DNA of 64,000 nucleotides from Actinomycetota bacterium (lineage in GTDB: Bacteria; Actinomycetota; UBA4738; HRBIN12), in NCBI GenBank assembly GCA_046731295.1, contig JBKPKU010000054.1:52833-116832 (forward strand). The letters run 5' to 3'. The notes under the pieces are model-generated. The model did not search any database. It was not told the DNA's origin and saw only the letters and a program-made list of their open reading frames with translations. Positions within the stretch are counted from its first letter, which is position 1. Every line of letters begins with the position of its first letter. Below, in pieces: positions 4,817 through 16,360 of the stretch. The translations under genes were made by a program, and so were the position numbers.

Positions 4817-7273
4817 TCAGGCCCTGATCCGGTCGCCCCTCGGGTCGTAGAGCGGCTCCCGCGCGACCTCGGCGCCGATCCACTCGCCGAAGACCTCGAC
4901 CTCGAGCCGCGTGCCGACCTCGGCGAGACCGGGGGGCATGTACGCGAAAGCGATGCTCCGGCCGACCGTGTAGCCGATCCCGCCCGAGGTCACGCGCGAG
5001 ACGACGTCCCCGCCCGACCGGACCGGCTCGTTGCCGAGCGTGGACGACCTTGGGTCGTCGAGTACCAGGCACGCGAGGGTGCGCCCCTCCTCCGCACGCC
5101 TGCGCTCCAGGGCCGCTCGTCCGATGAAGTCCTTGCCGGGCGCGACGGCGAACGCGAGGCCGGCCTCGACCGGGGAGTCGTCGGGCGTCACGTCCGAGCC
5201 CCATGCTCGATACCCCTTCTCGAGCCTGAGCGAGTCGATCGCCCGATACCCGCCCGGCACCAGCCCGCGAGGCTCCCCGGCCGCCATCAGCGTGTCGAAC
5301 AACGCCGCCCCGAACTCGATCGGCGCGTAGAGCTCCCACCCGAGCTCGCCCACGTACGTGATACGCACCGCCAGGCACGGGACGTCGCCGACCGTGACCT
5401 CACGTGCGGCCATGAAGGGGAAGGCCTCGTTCGACAGGTCGTCGGGACAGACCGACGAGAGGATGTCGCGCGCGCGAGGACCCCACAGGCCGAGGCACGC
5501 GAGAGATGACGTCACGTCGCGGATCTCGACCCGGTCGGCGTCGTCGCGCTGCTTCGTGATCCATCCGAGGTCGAGGCTGCCCGATGCCGTCCCGGTGATG
5601 ATCCGGTAGCGGTCGTCCGCCAACCGCGTGACCGTGAGGTCGCACTGGATGCCGCCGCGGCGGTTCAGCATCTGGGTGTAGACGACACGGCCGGCCGAGA
5701 CGTCGACGTCGTTCGCGCAGATCCGCTGCAGGAACGCGCACGACTCGGCGCCCGAGACCTCGATCTTGGCGAAGCTCGTCTCGTCGAACAGCCCGGCCCG
5801 CTCGCGCGTTGCCACGTGCTCGGCCGGGATCGCCGTCGACCAGTGCTGCCCGGCCCACCCCCGCGGGCGCATCTCGGCGAACCTCTCGTCCTCGTTGCTC
5901 GCGAACCAGTTCGCACGCTCCCACCCCGCCTTCTCGCCGAACGCGGCGCCGAGCGACGCGAGCCTCGTGTACGTCGGCGAGATCCTGAGGGGACGGCCGG
6001 CCTCGACCTCCTCGCCCGGGTACTTCACGTCGTAATGCTTGGCGTAGATCTCGTAGGCGCGCGCGAGCGCGAACCCCCGACTGCGGTACTGCCGGCCGAA
6101 CCGCCGGACGTCCATCTTCGACAGGTCCATCGACGGTTCGCCCTCGACGATCCACTCGGCCGTGTAGCGGCCGACACCCGCCCCGCCGGTGATGCCGTGC
6201 GCACAGAACCCGGCCGCGACGAACAGGCCGCGCACCTCGGTCTCGCCCAGGATGAAGTCGTCGTCGGGTGTGAAGGCCTCGGGGCCGTTGATGAACCGGT
6301 TGATCTCGGTCGTGCGCAGCGCCGGGATCAGGTTGAAGGCTCCCTGCGCGATCGGCTCGAAACGCTCCCACCTCTCCTCGAGCAGCCGGTGGTTGAAGTC
6401 CGGCGGGATCGGCGTGCGGACGTTCCAGGGGTCGGGGTTGCGCTCGTAGCCGCCCACGACGAGGCCGCCCACCTCCTCGCGCACGTAGACGAGGTTGTCC
6501 GGGTCGCGCAGCGTCGGGAAGGCCGACGTGACCCCCTCGATCGGCCGGGTGATCAGGTACTGGTGCTCCATCGGCACGACCGGGATCTCCAGCCCGGCAA
6601 GGCCGCCGAGCTCGTGCGCCCAGATCCCGCCCGCGATGACCACGACCTCGGCCTCGATCGGGCCCGCGTCCGTGACCACGCCCCGAACGCGTTCGTCGCG
6701 GACCGGGATCTGGACGACGCGGACCCCGGTCCGGATCCGCGTGCCGCCGCGCTTGGCCCCTTCCGCGAGCGCCATCGTGAGGCCGGTCGGGTCCAGGTGG
6801 CCGTCGGAGGGCACGAACTGCGCGCCCAGGACGTTCGAGGCCTCGATCAGCGGGAACCGCTCGTGCGCCTCGGCCGCCGAGACCATCTCGACAGGCAGCC
6901 CGAAGCTCTTGGCCCAGCCCGCCTGCCGCTCGAGCGCCTCGAGCCGGTACTCGGAGGAGGCGAGGTGCAGCGTTCCCACCTGGTGCCAGCCGGGATCGAT
7001 CCCGGTCTCGTCGTGCAGTCGCGGATACAGCTCGACCCCGTACATCATCATCCGGGTGTGGCTGACCGAGTTCCGCAGCTGCGCGACCAGGCCGGCCGAA
7101 TGGAACGTCGACCCGCTCGTGAGCTCGGAGCGGTCCAGGAGCAGCACGTCGTTCCAGCCCATCTTCGTCAGGTGGTAGGCGATGCTCGCGCCGGCGACGC
7201 CGCCGCCCACGATCACGGCGTGCGCGCGGTCCTCGCTCACGGGGCGATCGGCCGGGACGCCAGCTCGAGCCAT
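4817..7273 (-). CDS. Dimethylglycine oxidase / sarcosine dehydrogenase family protein (FAD-dependent oxidoreductase fused to a GcvT-type aminomethyltransferase folate-binding domain)
   Basis: N-terminal HAVIVGGGVAGASIAYHL dinucleotide-binding motif and DAO domain; C-terminal GcvT-like domain (ITYVGELGWELY, GGYRAIDSLRLEKGY). Start set at MARAGVP (818 aa); the upstream 119 codons of the ORF are Arg/Gly-rich and were rejected. Confidence 0.85.
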   Translation of the reverse strand: MARAGVPADRPVSEDRAHAVIVGGGVAGASIAYHLTKMGWNDVLLLDRSELTSGSTFHSAGLVAQLRNSVSHTRMMMYGVELYPRLHDETGIDPGWHQVGTLHLASSEYRLEALERQAGWAKSFGLPVEMVSAAEAHERFPLIEASNVLGAQFVPSDGHLDPTGLTMALAEGAKRGGTRIRTGVRVVQIPVRDERVRGVVTDAGPIEAEVVVIAGGIWAHELGGLAGLEIPVVPMEHQYLITRPIEGVTSAFPTLRDPDNLVYVREEVGGLVVGGYERNPDPWNVRTPIPPDFNHRLLEERWERFEPIAQGAFNLIPALRTTEINRFINGPEAFTPDDDFILGETEVRGLFVAAGFCAHGITGGAGVGRYTAEWIVEGEPSMDLSKMDVRRFGRQYRSRGFALARAYEIYAKHYDVKYPGEEVEAGRPLRISPTYTRLASLGAAFGEKAGWERANWFASNEDERFAEMRPRGWAGQHWSTAIPAEHVATRERAGLFDETSFAKIEVSGAESCAFLQRICANDVDVSAGRVVYTQMLNRRGGIQCDLTVTRLADDRYRIITGTASGSLDLGWITKQRDDADRVEIRDVTSSLACLGLWGPRARDILSSVCPDDLSNEAFPFMAAREVTVGDVPCLAVRITYVGELGWELYAPIEFGAALFDTLMAAGEPRGLVPGGYRAIDSLRLEKGYRAWGSDVTPDDSPVEAGLAFAVAPGKDFIGRAALERRRAEEGRTLACLVLDDPRSSTLGNEPVRSGGDVVSRVTSGGIGYTVGRSIAFAYMPPGLAEVGTRLEVEVFGEWIGAEVAREPLYDPRGDRIRA

Positions 7274-8157
7274 CCCTCGAAACGTTCGTCCGCCATCGAC
7301 CGCAACAGGCGGTCGAAGTGCCGCCCCGCATAGGCGACATAGTCGATGTCCAGCGTCGACAGCGCCTGCTGCACCACGCCCCACATCGCCTCGCGGAAGT
7401 CCGACATGATCCGCATCAGGTGTAGGCGGGCGCGGTGCGCGTCGGTCACCTCGTCGAACATCAGCCCGAGCAGCGCCTCCTGCGAGTCCTCGGACAGCGC
7501 GTTGTTGATCGACAGGTTGCCCAGGTCGAAGAACGGGTCGCCCATGCCCGCGTACTCGTAGTCGACCAACCAGAACCCGTCGTCGCCGCGCAGGAAGTTG
7601 TCGGCCAGCAGGTCGTTGTGGCACGGGCACTCGGGCACGGGCGCCTGGGCAAACGCCTCCTCGATGCGTCCCGCGCGCTCGTGCGCGGGCTCGAACGCGT
7701 CCGGGATCGCGACGCCCCGCTCATGCGCGATCCGCCGGTAGTCCTCGACGATCCTGAAGGCCTCGAACGAGCACGGCAAACGCGGTCCGGCGTGGATCGT
7801 GCGGACCACGCGCGCCACGTCCGCGAGCACATTCTCCTGCTCCATGTCGCCCTCGGCCAGGGGCTCCCCCGGGACCCAGCCGGTGATCAGGCAGCGGTGC
7901 TGGGGCAGGTGGGCCACGACCTCGGGGCCGACGCCGGCCGCTGCCGCGTCGAGTGCGGCCTCGTACTCCGCGGCGCGGTCGATGCCCAGCAGCGCGGTGT
8001 CCTCGTCGGACAGGCGCAGGAAGAAGGCCGCGCCGCCCACCTCGACGCGGAAGTTCCGGTTCGTCCGTCCCGCGTCGATCGGCGTCACGGTCGGCTCGTG
8101 CGTCCGCCATTCGGGAACGGCGGCGATCACCGCCGCCAGTTGGGGGTCCTGGAGCAC
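7237..8157 (-). CDS. Choline/ethanolamine kinase - aminoglycoside phosphotransferase (APH) family protein
   Basis: Kinase-fold motifs: Brenner HNDLLADNFL and the DYEYAGMGDPFFDLGN Mg-binding loop, typical of ChoK/APH. Overlaps the DMGO start by 37 nt. Confidence 0.75.
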   Translation of the reverse strand: MLQDPQLAAVIAAVPEWRTHEPTVTPIDAGRTNRNFRVEVGGAAFFLRLSDEDTALLGIDRAAEYEAALDAAAAGVGPEVVAHLPQHRCLITGWVPGEPLAEGDMEQENVLADVARVVRTIHAGPRLPCSFEAFRIVEDYRRIAHERGVAIPDAFEPAHERAGRIEEAFAQAPVPECPCHNDLLADNFLRGDDGFWLVDYEYAGMGDPFFDLGNLSINNALSEDSQEALLGLMFDEVTDAHRARLHLMRIMSDFREAMWGVVQQALSTLDIDYVAYAGRHFDRLLRSMADERFEGWLELASRPIAP

Positions 8158-8263: not shown

Positions 8264-8291
8264 TTGACAGGCACAGAGCGGTCCGTACACT
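8264..8291 (+). promoter_or_regulatory. Sigma-70-like promoter: TTGACA, 16-nt spacer, TACACT
   Basis: Hexamers read directly from the sequence in the divergent intergenic region. The predicted TSS lies 2-3 nt before the leader ATG, so the leader mRNA would be leaderless. Confidence 0.4.
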
Positions 8292-8300
8292 GGCCCAACC

Positions 8301-8354
8301 ATGCAGACGATGTTGGAGAAGACCGGGCCGCAGGCACTCGTACTTATTCCGTAG
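8301..8354 (+). CDS. Putative ilv operon leader peptide MQTMLEKTGPQALVLIP (17 aa)
   Basis: Short ORF immediately after the promoter that ends in consecutive branched-chain codons (Leu-Val-Leu-Ile). It is followed by a nested hairpin (8355-8390) and a terminator hairpin with a T-tract. Confidence 0.45.
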   Translation: MQTMLEKTGPQALVLIP

Positions 8355-8394
8355 GCGCGGCCGGGCCGAGACAGGCCCGGGTCCCGCGCCAGAC

Positions 8395-8422
8395 GCCCCT
8401 CGCGCAGCGAGGGGCTTTTTGT
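8395..8422 (+). terminator. Rho-independent attenuator terminator (gcccctcgc-gca-gcgaggggc followed by TTTTT)
   Basis: 9-bp GC stem, 3-nt loop and T5 run. It sits between the leader ORF and the first structural gene, the classic attenuator arrangement. Confidence 0.5.
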
Positions 8423-8484
8423 ACGCCTCGCGGGGCGATCGGCGAGGCCGGCGATCAGGTCGACGACACGGAGAGGAGATCCAG

Positions 8485-8823
8485 ATGCGCTACGAGTTCG
8501 AGCGGGACGGACGGATGGTGGCCAGCGTGCTGTGGGAGGGTCCCGGCCAGGTCACGGTCGACGTGGCCGACCCGGCCGACCGGCCGCAGTTCGACCGGTT
8601 CTTCGGCGAGGAGGTCGCCTACCTGGACGCCGGGGTCGACTTCGGCGGCGGCATGGACGAGGGCGGCATGACCACGCGCCGCCGCGACTGGACGCCGTGG
8701 GAGTTCGAGCGGGCGGCGCAGAGCCTGGCCCACACGCTGGGGTGCCGCCTGCACCGGGTCGAGACCGGGCCGGTCGAGGAGCGCGCCGCGGTCGCCGGCC
8801 GCGCGGAGGTCGCCGCTACATGA
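8485..8823 (+). CDS. Hypothetical acidic protein (112 aa), first cistron of the ilv operon
   Basis: Strong RBS GAGAGGAGAT 6 nt upstream of the ATG. Its stop overlaps the ilvB start (ATGA). No recognisable domain ([50 protein letters not shown]...). Confidence 0.6.
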
Positions 8824-10568
8824 GGGTCACCGGCGCGCAGGCGCTGTTCCGGGCCCTCGAGGGCGAGGGCGTCGATCTCGCGTTCGGCATCCCTGGCGGG
8901 GCGATCCTGCCCGCCTACGACCCGCTGATCGACTCGAGGGTCCGCCACGTCCTGTGCCGCCACGAGCAGGGCGCGGGCCACGCGGCCGAGGGCTACGCGT
9001 GGGCCACGGGCAAGGTGGGCGTCGCCATCGCGACGTCGGGCCCCGGGGGCTGCAACCTGGTCACGGCGCTCGCGGACGCCAAGATGGACTCGGTGCCGAT
9101 GGTCGCGATCACCGGCCAGGTCCCGACCCCGGTGGTCGGCAACGACGCGTTCCAGGAGGCGGACATCACCGGCATCACGATGCCGATCACCAAGCACAAC
9201 TTCCTGGTCAAGGACGCGAACGAGGTCGCCGAGACGATCCGGGAGGCGTTCCACATCGCGCGGACCGGCCGGCCCGGCCCAGTCCTGGTCGACATCCCCA
9301 AGGACGTGCAGCTGCAGGAGATCACCTGGCGTTGGCCCGAGGGTGTCGACCTGCCCGGCTACCGCCCGACCACCAAGGGAAACCTGAAACAGGTCCGCAC
9401 GGCCGCGACGATGATCATGGAGTCCGAGCGCCCCGTCTTGTACGTGGGCGGGGGCGTCATCAAGGCGGACGCGAGCAAGGAGCTGTTCCAGCTCGCCACC
9501 GACGGTGCGTTGCCGGTCACGACGACGCTCATGGCGCGCGGCGCGTTCCCCGACACGCACGAGCTCGCGCTCGGGATGCCGGGGATGCACGGGGCCTACA
9601 CGGCGGTCACCGCGATGCAGAGGGCCGACCTGCTGGTCGCGCTCGGCGCGCGGTTCGACGACCGGGTGACCGGACAGCTGTCCTCGTTCGCGCCGGACGC
9701 CAGGATCGTGCACGTCGACGTCGACCCGGCCGAGATCGGCAAGAACCGCGCCGCCGATGTCCCGATCGTGGGCGACTGCAAGGACGTGATCGCCAAGCTC
9801 CACACCGAGCTCGGGCGCCTGCAGGGCGAGGCGGGGGGCGTCCCCGACCGGACCGCATGGCTGCGCCAGATCGACGAGTGGCGGACCGCGCACCCGTACG
9901 CCTACGACCAGCCCGCGGACGGTCCCCTCAAGCCCCAGTACTGCATCGAGCGGCTGTACGAACACACCAAGGGCGACGCGATCGTGGTGGCCGGCGTCGG
10001 GCAACACCAGATGTGGGCGTCGCAGTTCTGGAAGTTCACCGAGCCCCGGACGTGGGTGAACTCGGGCGGGCTCGGGACGATGGGGTTCGCGGTGCCGGCG
10101 GCGCTCGGCGCCAAGGCCGGCAACCCGGACCGGCGCGTGATCGCGATCGACGGCGACGGGTGTTTCCAGATGACGAACCAGGAGCTCGCGACCTCGACGG
10201 CCGAGGGCATCCCATTCGTCACCGCCATCATCAACAACGCGCACCTCGGGATGGTCCGGCAGTGGCAGGAGCTCTTCTACGAGGAGCGCTACTCGCAGGT
10301 CTACCTGTCCTACGACGTCCCGGACTACGTGAAGCTCGCCGAGGCGTACGGGTGTGTGGGCCTTCGGGCCGAGCACCCCGACGAGGTGGACGCCGTGATC
10401 GACAAGGCACTGTCGATCGAGGATCGAAGCGTCGTCATCGACTTCCGGGTGGATTCGAAGGAGATGTGCTTCCCGATGGTCCCGGCCGGGGCGAGCAACG
10501 ACGACATCATCGCCGGCCCCGAGGGCCTTCGGCCCGTGGACGACCCGGCGGAAGCTCCGGTCGCATGA
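8820..10568 (+). CDS. ilvB: Acetolactate synthase (acetohydroxyacid synthase) large subunit
   Basis: ThDP-enzyme motifs ([41 protein letters not shown]). Start chosen at [10 protein letters not shown]; the upstream 96 Arg/Gly codons were rejected. Confidence 0.9.
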
Positions 10569-11119
10569 GCCTGCACACGATCTCGGTGCTGGTCGAGGAC
10601 AAGCCCGGCGTGCTCACGCGCGTGGCCGGGCTGTTCGCCGCCCGCGGCTTCAACATCGACTCGCTCGCGGTCGGACCCACCAACGGCGAGGGCCAGTCGC
10701 GCATGACGATCGTCGTGCACGTGGACACCAAGCCCCTCGAACAGATCACCAAGCAGCTCAACAAGCTGGTGAACGTCATCAAGATCCTCGAGCACGAGCC
10801 CGGCGACGCCGTCGAACGCGAGCTGATGCTCGTGAAGGTGCGCGCGAGCGGCGACGACCGGCATCGCGCGATGGAGATCGCCAACGTGTTCCGGGCCACG
10901 GTGGTGGACGTCACCCGTTCCACGCTCACGCTCGAGGCCACCGGCAAGCCGGAGAAGCTCGAGGCCCTCCTGCAGCTGCTCGGCGACTTCGGCGTGATCG
11001 AGCTCTCGCGCACCGGGCGCATCGCGCTCGCGCGCGGGGACCGAGGGATCAGGGAGAAGGGGTCCAAGCGCAGGGCGCTCGCGGCCGTGGCCGACGAGTA
11101 CACCGGCGGCAGCGTCTGA
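10565..11119 (+). CDS. ilvN: Acetolactate synthase small (regulatory) subunit, ACT domain
   Basis: [37 protein letters not shown] signature; ATGA overlap with ilvB. Confidence 0.9.
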
Positions 11120-11150
11120 CCTTCACGCGATCCGGAAAGGCGGGAGCTGG

Positions 11151-12170
11151 ATGGCCACGATCTACCACGACCAGGACGCGGACCCCTCGGCGCTTGCGGG
11201 GCAACGGATCGCGGTGCTGGGGTTCGGAAGCCAGGGGCACGCGCACGCCCAGAACCTGCGAGACTCCGGGCACGACGTGCGGGTGGGCCTGCGCGAGGGT
11301 TCGGCGTCGTGGTCCCGGGTCGAGGAGGCGGGCCTGCCGGTGAAGGCGACGGCCGAGGCCGTCGCCGAGGCCGACGCCGTGATGGTCGTCCTGCCCGACA
11401 CCGCACACGGGGCCGTCTACGCCAGGGACATCGGGCCGAACCTTTCCGCGGGCAACATGCTGATGTTCGCGCACGGCTTCTCGATCCACTTCGGCACGGT
11501 CAAGCCGCCCGCCGACGTCGACGTCACGATGATCGCCCCCAAGGGCCCCGGTCACCTCGTGAGGCGCACGTACGAGGAGGGGATCGGCACCCCGGCGCTG
11601 ATCGCCGTCCAGCAAGACGCGACCGGCACGGCGCTGCAACGTGCGCTCGCCTACGGCGCCGGGATCGGAGCCGCCCGCGCCGGCATCATCGAGACGACGT
11701 TCAAGGAGGAGACCGAGACCGACCTGTTCGGCGAGCAGTCCGTGCTGTGCGGCGGGATCTCGACGCTGGTGGAGGCGGGGTTCGAGACGCTGGTGCGCGC
11801 CGGTTACCAGCCGGAGATCGCCTACTTCGAGTGTCTGCACGAGCTCAAGCTCATCATCGACCTCATCTATGAGGGCGGCCTGTCGTGGATGCGCTACTCG
11901 ATCTCGGACACCGCCGAATGGGGCGACTACATGAGCGGTCCCCGCGTCGTGGACGAGGGCGTTCGCGAACGCATGCGCCAGGTCCTGGCCGAGATCCAGG
12001 ACGGCACGTTCGCGGAGGAGTGGCTGGGGGAGGCCGAGGCCGGCTTCCCCCACTTCCTCGCGATGCGCCGCGAGGCCCGCGGCTCCGAGCTGGAGCGCGT
12101 GGGCCGCGAGCTGCGTCCGATGATGCCGTGGTTGCATTCCGACGAGAAGGTGATCCCCGATGACCACTAG
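11151..12170 (+). CDS. ilvC: Ketol-acid reductoisomerase (class I, ~340 aa)
   Basis: [24 protein letters not shown]-binding motif, conserved IlvC body, 339 aa. Confidence 0.9.
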
Positions 12171-13710
12171 CAACGACCCCGACGTAGTACGGATCTTCGA
12201 CACCACCCTCCGCGACGGCGAGCAGGCCCCCGGGATCGCGCTCACCCGGGCCGAGAAGGTCGAGATCGCGGAGCAGCTGGCCCGCCTCGGCGTCGACGTG
12301 CTCGAGGCGGGCTTTCCGGTCTCCAGCGACGGCGAGTTCGAGGCCGTGCGCGAGATCGCCGCGAGCGTTCGCGGCCCGGTGATCGCGGCGCTCGCTCGCG
12401 TCGTACCCGGCGACATCACGCGCGCCGCCGAGGCGCTCGACGGCGCCGAGCGCTGGCGGATCCACACGTTCATCTCCACCAGCGACATCCACATGACGGA
12501 CATGCTGCGGATGAGCCAGGGCCAGGTCCTGGACGCGATCCGCGACGGCGTCAAGCTCGCCGTCGGGTACACCGACGACGTCGAGTTCAGTGCGCAGGAC
12601 GCCACCCGGACCGAGCTCGAGTTCCTGCTCGAGTGCTTCCGGGTCGCCGTGGAGGCGGGCGCCATCACGATCAACGTGCCCGACACCGTCGGCTATGCGA
12701 TGCCGCACGAGTTCGGCGAGCTCGTCCGGACCGTCCGCGAGGCGGTGCCCGACCACGTCGTGATCTCGACGCACTGCCACAACGACCTCGGCCTCGCGGT
12801 CGCGAACTCGCTGGCCGCCATCGTGAACGGCGCGCGCCAGGTCGAGGTGGCCGTGAACGGGATCGGGGAGCGGGCCGGCAACTGCTCGCTCGAGGAGGTC
12901 GCGATGATCGTGCGGACGCGCAGCGAGGCACTCGGCGTCCGGCACGGCCTGAACCTGAAGGAGATCACGCGCACCTCGCGCCTGGTCAGCATGACCACGG
13001 GGTACGGCGTGCAGCCCAACAAGGCCGTGGTGGGCGCGTCCGCGTTCGCGCACGAGAGCGGGATCCACCAGCACGGCGTGCTCTCCAACCGGGCGACCTA
13101 CGAGATCATGGACCCGCTCGAGATCGGCCTGGAGGGCAACCGCCTCGTCCTGGGCAAGCACTCGGGCCGCCACGCGTTCGCCGACGCCCTGGACAAGCTC
13201 GGGATCGAGCTCGACGAGGATCACCTGAACCGCGCATTCGCACGCTTCAAGGAGCTCGCCGACCGCAAGATCCAGCTCACCGATCAGGACCTCGCGGCGA
13301 TCGTGTCCGAGGAGCTCGGCGCGGCGGCCGAGGACGTGTTCGTCCTGGAGGCCTTGCAGGTCGGTGGCGGGACGCTGCTCTCCCCGACGGCCAGCGTTCG
13401 GCTCCGCAAGGGCGACGAGATCGTCGAGGAGTCGGCGATGGGCGACGGGATGATCGACGCGGCGATGGGCGCGATCCAGCGCGCCTCGGGCGTCGAGGGG
13501 CGACTCGTCTCGTTCAACGTCTCCGCCGTGACCGGCGGGACCGACGCGCTGGGCGACGTCGTGGTTCAGCTGGACGCGCTCGGGCGGCGCGTGACCGGGC
13601 GTGGCGTGGCCACCGACGTCGTCGAGGCCAGCGCGCGCGCCTACCTCGCGGCCGTCAACCGGGCGCTCCTGATGTCGAACGGGCACGCCGAGGAGGACGG
13701 CACGCCGTGA
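12160..13710 (+). CDS. leuA: 2-isopropylmalate synthase (long bacterial form with C-terminal LeuA-dimer regulatory domain)
   Basis: [12 protein letters not shown] ... [17 protein letters not shown] ... [11 protein letters not shown] motifs. 516 aa; 11-nt overlap with ilvC. Confidence 0.9.
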
Positions 13711-14750
13711 CGCACGCGGTCGGTGTGATCCGGGGCGACGGCACGGGTCCCGAGGTCATCGGGCAGGCCCTGCGCGTCCTGGACGCCGTGGCCGTTCCGG
13801 TCGAGCTCGTCGAGTTCGACCTCGGCGCCGAACGCTATCTGCGTACCAGCGAGGTGCTGCCCGACGACGAGCTGGCTCGGCTCCGCGAGATGGACGCGAT
13901 CCTGCTCGGCGCCGTGGGCGACCCCAGGGTCCGGCCCGGCGTGCTCGAACGCGATCTGCTGCTCCGGATCCGGTTCGATCTGGACCAGTACGTGAACCTG
14001 CGGCCGATCGTGCGCTACCCGGGCGTCGAGACCCTGATCCCCAGCCAGACCGAGGACGACGTGAACATGGTGGTTGTGCGGGAGAACTCCGAGGGTCTGT
14101 ACGTCGGCGCGGGAGGCTTCCACCGCAAGGGGACCGAGCACGAGGTGGCCGTCCAGGAGTCGATCAACACGCGGCACGGGGTCGAGCGCATCGTGCGATA
14201 CGCGTTCGAGCTGGCGAGGCGGCCGGAGCGGCGTCGCAAGCTGACGCTGGTCCACAAGACCAACGTGCTCACGTTCGCCGGCGATCTGTACCGGCGGGTC
14301 GTGGAGGAGGTGGGCGTCGCGTATCCCGATGTCGAGCACGACTACGTCCACGTGGACGCCGCGTGCATCTACTTCCTGGATCAGCCGTCGCGGTTCGATG
14401 TGATCGTGACCGACAACATGTTCGGCGACATCATCACGGACCTCGGCGCGATGATCCAGGGCGGGATGGGCATCGCGGCCGGCGGCAACATCAACCCGGC
14501 CGGCACGAGCATGTTCGAGCCGATCGGGGGCACGGCGCCCGACCACGCAGGCAGGGGCACGATCAACCCGCTGGCCGCGATCGGCGCGCTCCAGATGCTC
14601 CTGGCCCAGCTCGGCGAGGCCGACGCGGCCGACCGCGTGACCGCGGGCATCCGCGTCGCGTGCTCGAAGATGTCCTCCATGCGCGCCGGCGAGATGGGGT
14701 ACTCGACGCGGGAGGTCGGCGATCTCGTGCTCGAGGGGGCCACCGCATGA
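13707..14750 (+). CDS. leuB: 3-isopropylmalate dehydrogenase
   Basis: GTG start in a GTGA overlap with leuA; [10 protein letters not shown] ... [19 protein letters not shown] motifs of the isocitrate/isopropylmalate dehydrogenase family. Confidence 0.85.
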
Positions 14751-16360
14751 GCGTGGGCGCGGGCCTGCAGGTCGAGCTGTACGACACCACGCTGCGCGAC
14801 GGCGCGCAGGGCGCCGGCGTCTCGTACTCGATCGACGACCGCCTGCGGATCCTGCACAAGCTCGACCAGCTCGGGGTGCCGTTCGTCGAGGGCGGTTGGC
14901 CGGGTGCGAACCCGCGGGAGACCGAGTTCTTCCGGCTGGCGACCGGCGAGACGCTCAAGCACGCGACGCTCACGGCGTTCGGGATGACGCGCAAGGCGGG
15001 GGAGTCGGCGGGCTCGAGCGCCGTGCTCCGCGACCTGCTGGACGCCGGGACGCGGGTCGTGACCCTGGTGGGCAAGGCCTGGGACCTGCACGTCATCGAC
15101 GCGCTTCGGACGACCCTGGACGAGGGCGAGGCCATGGTGCGCGACTCGATCGGCTTCCTGCGCGAGCAGGGCCGGCGGGTCTTCTTCGACGCCGAGCACT
15201 TCTTCGACGGGTACCGCAGCGACCCCGCGTTCGCCCTGCGGATCCTCCGGACCGCCGAGGAGGCGGGCGCCGAGCGGCTGGTCCTGTGCGACACGAACGG
15301 CGGGATGCTGCCCCAGGAGGTGGCGCGCATCGTCGGCGAGGTGCGCCAGAGCGTCCGGCCGCCGCTCGGGATCCACGTCCACAACGATGCCGGCTGCGCG
15401 ATCGCCAACTCACTGATCGCCGTCGAGCACGGTGTTTATCAGGTGCAGGGCGTCGTGAACGGCTATGGGGAGCGGACCGGCAACGCGGACCTGATCCCGA
15501 TCGCCGCCAACCTCGTGCTGAAGATGGGCGCCGAGTGCCTGCCCGACGGGTCGCTCGAGCGGCTCACCGAGGTCGCCCACTACGTGGCCGAGGTCGCCAA
15601 CGTGGCGCCGGACGCGCGGCAGCCGTACGCGGGCCGGTACGCGTTCACGCACAAGGCCGGCCTGCACGCGAGCGGCGTCGAACGCGTCTCGCGCGCGTAC
15701 GAGCACGTCGAGCCCACCACGGTCGGCAACCGGCGCGGGGTGGTGGCCAGCGATCTCGGCGGCGGCGCCACGATCCGGATGAAGGGTCGGGAGTTCGGCG
15801 TCGAGCTCGACGGCGACGCGGTCACGCGCCTGCTGAGCGAGCTCAAGGAGCGCGAGGCCCGCGGCTACACGTTCGAGATCGCCGACGCCTCGCTCGAGCT
15901 GCTCATGCGGCGTGCCGACGGCTGGCGGCAGCCGTTCTTCCAGATCGACAGCTACCGCGTCCACGTCGAGGAGCGCGTCGGCGACGACGAGCCGCCCCTC
16001 GCCGAAGCCACGGTGAAGGTCGTGACGAAGGGCCGCCGGCACATCGAGAGCGCCGAGGGGCACGGCCCCGTGGGGGCCCTCGACAACGCGCTGCGCAAGG
16101 CGCTGGCCAACGACTACCCGGAGCTCGAGCACATCACGCTCGAAGACTTCCGGGTGCGCGTGCTGGACGAGACCCATGGCACAGGTGCGGTAGTCCGCGT
16201 CCTGATCGACACATCGAACGGTCGGCGCGAGTGGACCACCGTCGGCGTGTCCGAGAACATCATCGAGGCCTCCTGGGAGGCGCTCGTCGACGGCTACCTG
16301 TTCGGCCTGATCCACCCGCGCGAGAGCGAGGAGCCGCGAAGCGAGCCCGCGGTACGCTGA
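14747..16360 (+). CDS. cimA: (R)-citramalate synthase-like LeuA-family enzyme with C-terminal regulatory domain
   Basis: Second LeuA-family gene ([45 protein letters not shown]), 537 aa, with the cimA-type architecture. Its ATGA overlaps leuB. A paralogous leuA cannot be excluded. Confidence 0.75.

Follow-up and report, generated by a model that had tools for sequence, protein, structure and literature searches.

Acetohydroxyacid synthase, which stands at the entry to the synthesis of valine, leucine, and isoleucine, is a major herbicide and antimicrobial target, and to our knowledge only catalytic and ACT-type regulatory subunits of it are known. We analyzed a gene, here called orfX, that encodes a 112-residue acidic protein immediately upstream of the synthase gene ilvB in a 64,000-nucleotide (nt) stretch of DNA (the window) from an Actinomycetota bacterium (contig JBKPKU010000054.1, positions 52,833 to 116,832). 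An attenuator of actinobacterial ilvB, consisting of a leader peptide rich in branched-chain amino acids (BCAAs) and a Rho-independent terminator, was predicted by Seliverstov et al. in 2005 (PMC1262725). In the ilvB1NC operon of Mycobacterium tuberculosis, experimental validation established that the "LVVI" codons of an upstream open reading frame (uORF) control read-through of a Rho-independent terminator, which lies ∼42 nt from ilvB (PMC13236596). The region 5′ of orfX resembles the actinobacterial ilvB(N)C attenuator in having a promoter, a short LVLI leader open reading frame (ORF), hairpins, and a U-tract terminator. Unlike in Mycobacterium, Corynebacterium, and Streptomyces, in which ilvB directly follows the terminator, here a gene of 100 to 112 codons is inserted between the two. 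Both attenuator and operon are of the classical kind; the novelty lies in the first cistron, which encodes a conserved orphan protein without described relatives or a curated family. Searches of the literature yielded nothing relevant on a small protein upstream of ilvB or on a third synthase subunit.

The gene and its junction with ilvB comprise the following features.

8470..8478, + strand: Shine-Dalgarno (SD) sequence of orfX, GGAGAGGAG, 6 nt 5′ of the orfX ATG
8485..8823, + strand: orfX, encoding the 112-residue acidic protein (ATG at 8485, TGA at 8821-8823)
8805..8809, + strand: GGAGG, the SD sequence of ilvB itself, inside the orfX tail and 10 nt 5′ of the ilvB ATG
8820..8823, + strand: ATGA start/stop overlap of orfX and ilvB

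A preliminary description of this DNA had reported a protein of 112 residues with a strong ribosome-binding site, a high GC content at third codon positions, and a stop codon overlapping the ilvB start, and each of these particulars was borne out: translation from the ATG at 8485 matches the quoted protein exactly, GGAGAGGAG stands at the expected distance from that ATG, and GC content at codon positions 1, 2, and 3 is 78, 52, and 96%. The protein has a pI of 4.69 and a net charge of −8 and lacks any hydrophobic segment. The exact window protein is annotated as a gene on six public contigs (NCBI, JGI, and ENA records), each time as a "hypothetical protein."

One alternative is that orfX is a chance ORF of GC-rich DNA or a mis-called 5′ end of ilvB. 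Long ORFs do occupy every frame of this region of 70% GC DNA, and a length of 112 codons therefore proves nothing by itself. What sets orfX apart from chance is its conservation, seen in homologs, invariant columns, and the ratio of nonsynonymous to synonymous substitution rates (dN/dS). A word-indexed search of 5.8 billion proteins returned 520 OrfX relatives at an E value of ≤1e-3, and the median dN/dS over 4,448 pairs of orfX sequences was 0.28 at a median dS of 0.80. The high third-position GC content belongs to the orfX frame, and the gene calls in the NCBI, JGI, and ENA records are independent. Moving the start of ilvB upstream is no better a solution, since the in-frame GTG at 8532 would add 96 Arg/Gly/Pro-rich, off-frame residues and nothing else. 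The alignment of IlvB to NCBIfam model NF005860 begins at IlvB residue 2, and because large-subunit models align from residue 2 to 4 of the protein started at 8820, we take that position as the ilvB start; the suggestion that ilvB begins farther upstream and that orfX is a mis-called overlapping frame thus falls away. Nor is orfX an N-terminal extension of IlvB, as the two reading frames differ at the ATGA overlap. The artifact explanation, to which we attach virtually no credence, is already refuted by the conservation data, and orfX is a genuine gene under purifying selection.

The relatives define a narrow family. The best 120 of the 520 are all 102 to 143 residues long and unnamed or "hypothetical." Across 32 relatives that are 60 to 86% identical to the window protein, 28 columns are invariant, including RRDW-PWEFER and TGPVE, and in a set of 111 diverse members W17, R66, R67, D68, and F74 (window numbering) are invariant and a WEGPGQV turn is nearly so. 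A HMMER search with an OrfX profile over 1.84 billion cluster representatives gave 65 matches only, the full-length ones being 88 to 141 residues long. The long matches, P0150 and P0179 among them, proved to be frameshift chimeras or spurious repeat proteins instead of multidomain relatives; because this exhaustive search gave so few matches and the long ones are artifacts, we regard the family as narrow and without multidomain relatives. Scans of the window OrfX and 24 relatives against Pfam and NCBIfam gave no match at an E value of ≤10, in keeping with the earlier statement that the protein has no recognizable domain. With many homologs, purifying selection, a fixed neighborhood, and no curated-family match, OrfX represents an undescribed, operon-linked conserved family.

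A scan of one genome per species (185,579 species) found 213 genomes that encode an OrfX relative. The hosts are essentially all uncultured, metagenome-assembled "Actinomycetota bacterium" genomes, which agrees with the earlier suggestion of a lineage-specific addition. A published table places the GTDB taxa HRBIN12 and AC-69 in the order UBA4738 (PMC13248718). Judging from their names, two of the hosts, Bacterium HR12 (locus L048) and AC_69 (L058), and these two only, appear to have given their names to HRBIN12 and AC-69 and so to lead to that order. Typical family members, 65 to 83% identical to the rest, also occur on contigs filed as Candidatus Velamenicoccus archaeovorus (L065), Planctomycetaceae (L070), and Solirubrobacterales (L040); these records are probably binning or classification errors. 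Some metagenome-assembled genomes (MAGs) hold two contigs bearing the orfX-ilvB region (L026/L028 of MAG MFD10007.bin.2.82, L014/L054, and L060/L063). From a point ∼200 nt upstream of orfX, L026 and L028 share 99% identity, but their upstream flanks are unrelated; the pair could reflect mixed strains, a duplicate created in assembly, or a true duplication.

The genomic context of orfX was examined in 95 loci, of which 88 were fetched first. In all 95, orfX lies directly upstream of ilvB; syntenic homologs, whose absence would have spoken against the gene, are thus abundant. Genes farther upstream vary, among them ilvD, a choline-kinase-like gene, a sigma factor, MauE/DsbD-like genes, and glutamate synthase. 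No copy of orfX away from ilvB was found in the species-level genome scan or in the loci examined. The association extends to three distant subfamilies, P0242, P0229, and P0221, which are ∼28 to 32% identical to the window protein and are all encoded directly 5′ of ilvB-ilvN-ilvC-leuA.

Subfamily P0242 (loci L089 to L091): 37-nt spacer between orfX and ilvB
Subfamily P0229 (locus L092): 24-nt spacer between orfX and ilvB
Subfamily P0221 (locus L094): orfX abuts ilvB

A strong initiation signal is likewise widespread, AGGAG or GGAGG occurring 4 to 13 nt from the orfX start in 86 of the 95 loci.

The elements of the attenuator upstream of orfX are as follows.

8264..8291, + strand: promoter-like TTGACA-16 nt-TACACT (10 of 12 matches, with 0 expected in shuffled sequences)
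8302..8355, + strand: leader peptide ORF, MQTMLEKTGPQALVLIP followed by its stop codon, with regulatory Leu-Val-Leu-Ile codons at 8338-8349
8354..8390, + strand: GC-rich hairpin, the middle hairpin of the attenuator, which begins at the leader stop and is present in both the minimum free energy and the centroid structures
8395..8420, + strand: intrinsic terminator, with a 9-bp stem (8395-8415) that has 8 G-C pairs and is followed by TTTTT

The segment 8296-8430 has a folding z-score of −2.85, and the same promoter hexamers, TTGACA and TACACT, are present in locus L077. A short ORF ending in LVLI-x-stop was found 100 to 235 nt 5′ of orfX in every one of the 95 loci, and in 83 of them 5 or more consecutive T residues occur ∼55 to 60 nt past the leader stop. 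Outside the terminal Leu-Val-Leu-Ile-x, the leader peptide varies freely across the 95 loci; as a comparative signature of BCAA attenuation in an uncultured lineage, this pattern is very clean. A scan of the attenuator region against Rfam gave no matching model. The attenuator that had been described upstream of orfX is therefore present in all its parts (promoter-like site, leader ORF, and terminator stem with its T5 run), and with the leader, the terminator, and the downstream genes identified, orfX does stand as the first cistron after it, ahead of ilvBNC-leuAB-cimA.

Could orfX itself be the leader peptide or uORF of an attenuator? Such an ORF would have fewer than ∼45 codons and a run of regulatory codons overlapping alternative hairpins, and its peptide would otherwise be free to vary. 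That role is filled by the separate ORF at 8302-8355, and orfX, with 100 to 112 codons, a position 3′ of the terminator, a dN/dS of 0.28, and a predicted fold, does not fit it. Since orfX is always downstream of the LVLI leader and the terminator, it is co-regulated with the synthase. We infer by analogy that the attenuator works here as it does in M. tuberculosis; because orfX is placed between terminator and ilvB, OrfX would then be produced whenever the synthase is and at no other time.

These observations lead us to propose, tentatively, that acetohydroxyacid synthase has in OrfX an accessory or regulatory partner specific to this lineage and that the two are produced together when BCAAs run low; an accessory or regulatory subunit was among the possibilities raised in the preliminary description. 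The proposal builds on the position of the gene and its co-regulation. With charged Leu, Val, or Ile tRNAs in short supply, a ribosome would stall on the LVLI codons of the leader, and the terminator at 8395-8420 would be bypassed. The first product of the read-through mRNA would be OrfX, followed by IlvB, IlvN, IlvC, LeuA, LeuB, and CimA. OrfX, as a soluble, acidic, single-domain protein of ∼12 kDa, would bind the IlvB/IlvN enzyme and tune its assembly, stability, activity, or feedback sensitivity, with the invariant Arg-Arg-Asp loop and the WEGPGQV hairpin turn as its putative binding surface. Both the binding and its effect are inferred. Three considerations make a synthase partner the best explanation in our view: the link to ilvB is unbroken through deep divergence while genes farther upstream change, orfX sits under an amino-acid-sensing attenuator, and OrfX is small, soluble, predicted to be folded, and nonenzymatic looking, with conserved charged loops. 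The constraint on its amino acid sequence, evident from the dN/dS and the invariant residues, also favors a synthase partner, as do the strong SD sequence and, in the main clade, the overlap with ilvB, which would give matched synthesis.

Small, lineage-restricted modulators without enzymatic domains have precedents in the cyanobacterial glutamine synthetase inactivating factors IF7 and IF17 and in anti-TRAP of Bacillus subtilis. Their synthesis is tied to a nutrient signal of the pathway on which they act, as that of OrfX would be. They are usually encoded apart from their targets and their binding has been demonstrated, whereas binding by OrfX is a proposal, and we know of no homology between OrfX and any of them.

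The genes that follow orfX, identified by NCBIfam equivalog models, are these.

8820..10568, + strand: ilvB, acetolactate synthase large subunit, 582 residues (NF005860, 940 bits against a cutoff of 881)
10565..11119, + strand: ilvN, acetolactate synthase small subunit, with an ATGA overlap with ilvB
11151..12170, + strand: ilvC, ketol-acid reductoisomerase
12160..13710, + strand: leuA, 2-isopropylmalate synthase
13707..14750, + strand: leuB, 3-isopropylmalate dehydrogenase, with a GTGA overlap with leuA (its start could be a few codons upstream)
14747..16360, + strand: cimA, citramalate synthase, with an ATGA overlap with leuB

Overlaps of 4 nt (ATGA or GTGA) thus occur at nearly all junctions of the operon (at 10565, 13707, and 14747 as well as at orfX/ilvB). 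The ilvC/leuA overlap is 11 nt, and the sole intergenic gap is that between ilvN and ilvC (11120-11150). IlvB aligns to NF005860, an actinobacterial model, only from profile position 33, being without the ∼30-residue N-terminal extension typical of Mycobacterium-type IlvB1.

An RTGA overlap of orfX with ilvB was counted in 75 of the 88 loci at first, most of the others also having ATGA, and in 90 of 95 on a second count; taking both counts together, ∼83 to 90 of the 95 loci have it. Among the 90 overlapping loci, 52 have (G)GAGG at the fixed 10-nt spacing before ilvB and 62 have some SD-like motif. Because the orfX tail houses the SD sequence of ilvB, the constraint there acts on the nucleotides and not on the protein, and this probably accounts for the conservation of Glu-Val within a stretch of OrfX that is unstructured and elsewhere variable. 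The preliminary description had orfX translationally coupled to ilvB. The overlap on which it relied is real, but it carries less weight as evidence than that description implied, given that the same overlaps recur elsewhere in the operon and that ilvB has its own GGAGG. We consider the overlap consistent with matched synthesis, and not special evidence for a complex.

The same junction bears on the idea that only the translation of orfX matters, in which a long upstream cistron would open the mRNA after the terminator and hand ribosomes to ilvB while the peptide itself has no role. The strong SD sequence, the ATGA overlap, and the ilvB SD embedded in the orfX tail are what such a cistron would have, and reinitiation after leader genes has reportedly been proposed to boost translation in Actinobacteria. 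A peptide without a role is hard to reconcile, however, with a dN/dS of 0.28, with residues that are invariant across subfamilies only ∼30% identical, and with a confidently predicted fold; moreover, the distant subfamilies keep the protein and lose the overlap. We judge this explanation to be quite improbable.

Structure prediction divides OrfX into a folded core (residues 1 to 95), a Gly/Asp-rich loop at about residues 50 to 62, and an unstructured tail (residues 96 to 112). The second of two predictions gave a confident, compact fold with a predicted local distance difference test (pLDDT) score of 83.6 and a predicted template modeling (pTM) score of 0.71. Its topology is β1-β2-β3-α1-β4-β5-α2-β6, and by alignment the window OrfX carries a Gly/Asp-rich insertion of 7 to 8 residues in the β4-β5 hairpin. 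Sequence searches of the PDB with two profiles gave no match, the best E value being 0.29. In the fold comparison, ∼55 to 62 residues, forming an antiparallel sheet packed by two helices, superposed with a root mean square deviation of 2.2 to 3.5 Å. As modeled, the fold has no relative in the PDB. The label "YkuJ" (DUF1797) that JGI attaches to the relative P0114 was not upheld: 0 Pfam families matched at an E value of ≤10, and there was no YkuJ chain among the PDB sequence or fold matches.

Because the protein has a compact fold, ∼100 residues, no hydrophobic segment, and no match to a catalytic or DNA-binding family, a binding or adaptor protein fits better than an enzyme. In the predicted structure, the RRD loop adjoins the conserved Gly-Pro-Gly turn, and the charged RRD loop and the GPGQ turn would be the obvious candidates for a functional surface. 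Two invariant Arg residues and an Asp in a loop next to that turn could also belong to a protein that binds a small molecule of the pathway, such as a sensor, carrier, or protector for pyruvate, 2-ketobutyrate, unstable acetolactate/acetohydroxybutyrate, or a cofactor, with RRD holding a carboxylate or phosphate. Acetolactate is labile, and orfX adjoins the gene of the enzyme that makes it. We think such a role rather improbable.

A more specific form of the synthase-partner proposal is that OrfX is a third, lineage-specific synthase subunit of unseen fold that docks on IlvB/IlvN via the Arg-Arg-Asp loop and alters activation or feedback inhibition; this is conceivable, and we would sooner doubt it than adopt it. 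Like the regulatory subunits of the IlvN/IlvH/IlvM type, which bind and activate the catalytic subunit and confer valine feedback, OrfX is a small protein encoded beside the catalytic subunit gene, translationally overlapping it, and in the same attenuated operon. Unlike them, it shows no sequence relation to that type, and its topology is β3-α-β2-α-β as opposed to βαββαβ; a normal ilvN is also present in the operon. By domain content and predicted topology OrfX falls outside that type, since neither the N-terminal ACT domain (PF01842, PF13710, or PF22629) nor ALS_ss_C (PF10369) was matched and the topology is not βαββαβ. Descent of OrfX from the IlvN or IlvB of the window was rejected by hhalign (probability of 0.05% for IlvN).

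Several observations weigh against a synthase partner. The 4-nt overlap is the general style of the operon (ilvB/ilvN, leuA/leuB, and leuB/cimA) and not special to orfX/ilvB, and it is absent from the distant subfamilies with 24- to 37-nt spacers. In a distance-matrix mirror-tree analysis, which could draw on only 23 loci with all five genes, the partial r of OrfX distances was 0.32 with IlvB and the same, 0.32, with LeuA, and it was −0.09 with IlvN and 0.09 with IlvC; the analysis thus did not discriminate between the synthase and other operon products. Among the relatives there is no genuine fusion of OrfX to IlvB or IlvN. A location beside ilvB is also compatible with a function at another point of the pathway or in regulation.

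One apparent orfX-IlvB fusion, P0122, was traced to a 1-nt insertion in the long-read contig L096, where ilvB is also broken into two pieces and ilvN is cut short; once a single G is deleted, OrfX again ends in ...VEAREVVAG at the ATGA, as is usual. L077 is similarly frameshifted. More broadly, 1-nt indels in long-read (Microflora Danica-type) MAG contigs (L096, 3001-5587, and L077, 5001-5400) fuse or split orfX, ilvB, and ilvN and yield false "fusion" proteins (P0122, P0124, P0135, and P0140) in public collections.

The lack of co-evolution specific to IlvB or IlvN would suit another possibility, that OrfX is a starvation-induced regulator acting elsewhere, on a transcription factor, an RNA, or another enzyme, and extending the response to BCAA shortage. 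Under this explanation orfX would be expected beneath an attenuator as the first and best-initiated cistron, as it is, and the protein is small and acidic with conserved charged loops. Anti-TRAP, which is made under tRNA-sensing control, follows a similar logic. On the other hand, OrfX matches no DNA- or RNA-binding motif or family, a trans-acting factor need not stay beside ilvB and yet no copy was found anywhere else, and no candidate target emerged. We regard a regulator of this kind as unlikely. What probability remains beyond the explanations considered here belongs to functions that we have not thought of.

Divergently oriented genes lie upstream of the operon in the window.

4817..7630, − strand: large gene with DAO and GCV_T domains (sarcosine/dimethylglycine-oxidase-like)
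7237..8157, − strand: choline/aminoglycoside-kinase-like gene

The best NCBIfam match of the kinase-like gene is guanitoxin kinase GntI, at 251 bits and under the cutoff of 357. The pair of kinase-like and DAO/GCV_T genes is also found upstream of the operon in L002 and L004.

The reach of these findings is limited, in that only an uncultured lineage has the family and the function is read entirely from context; should OrfX prove not to interact with the synthase, what is left is a lineage-restricted protein without an assigned function. The orfX locus nevertheless shows that an attenuated operon of the classical kind can gain a gene at its head, and the link to ilvB offers a lead to the function of an orphan family of >500 sequences. 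Adjoining ilvB under the same attenuator across an order-level lineage, OrfX is a concrete candidate modulator that can be tested at little cost, and specialists would not expect a third synthase subunit. If OrfX is such a subunit, an enzyme that decades of study have treated as having two subunits would have an alternative architecture in widespread uncultured soil Actinomycetota.
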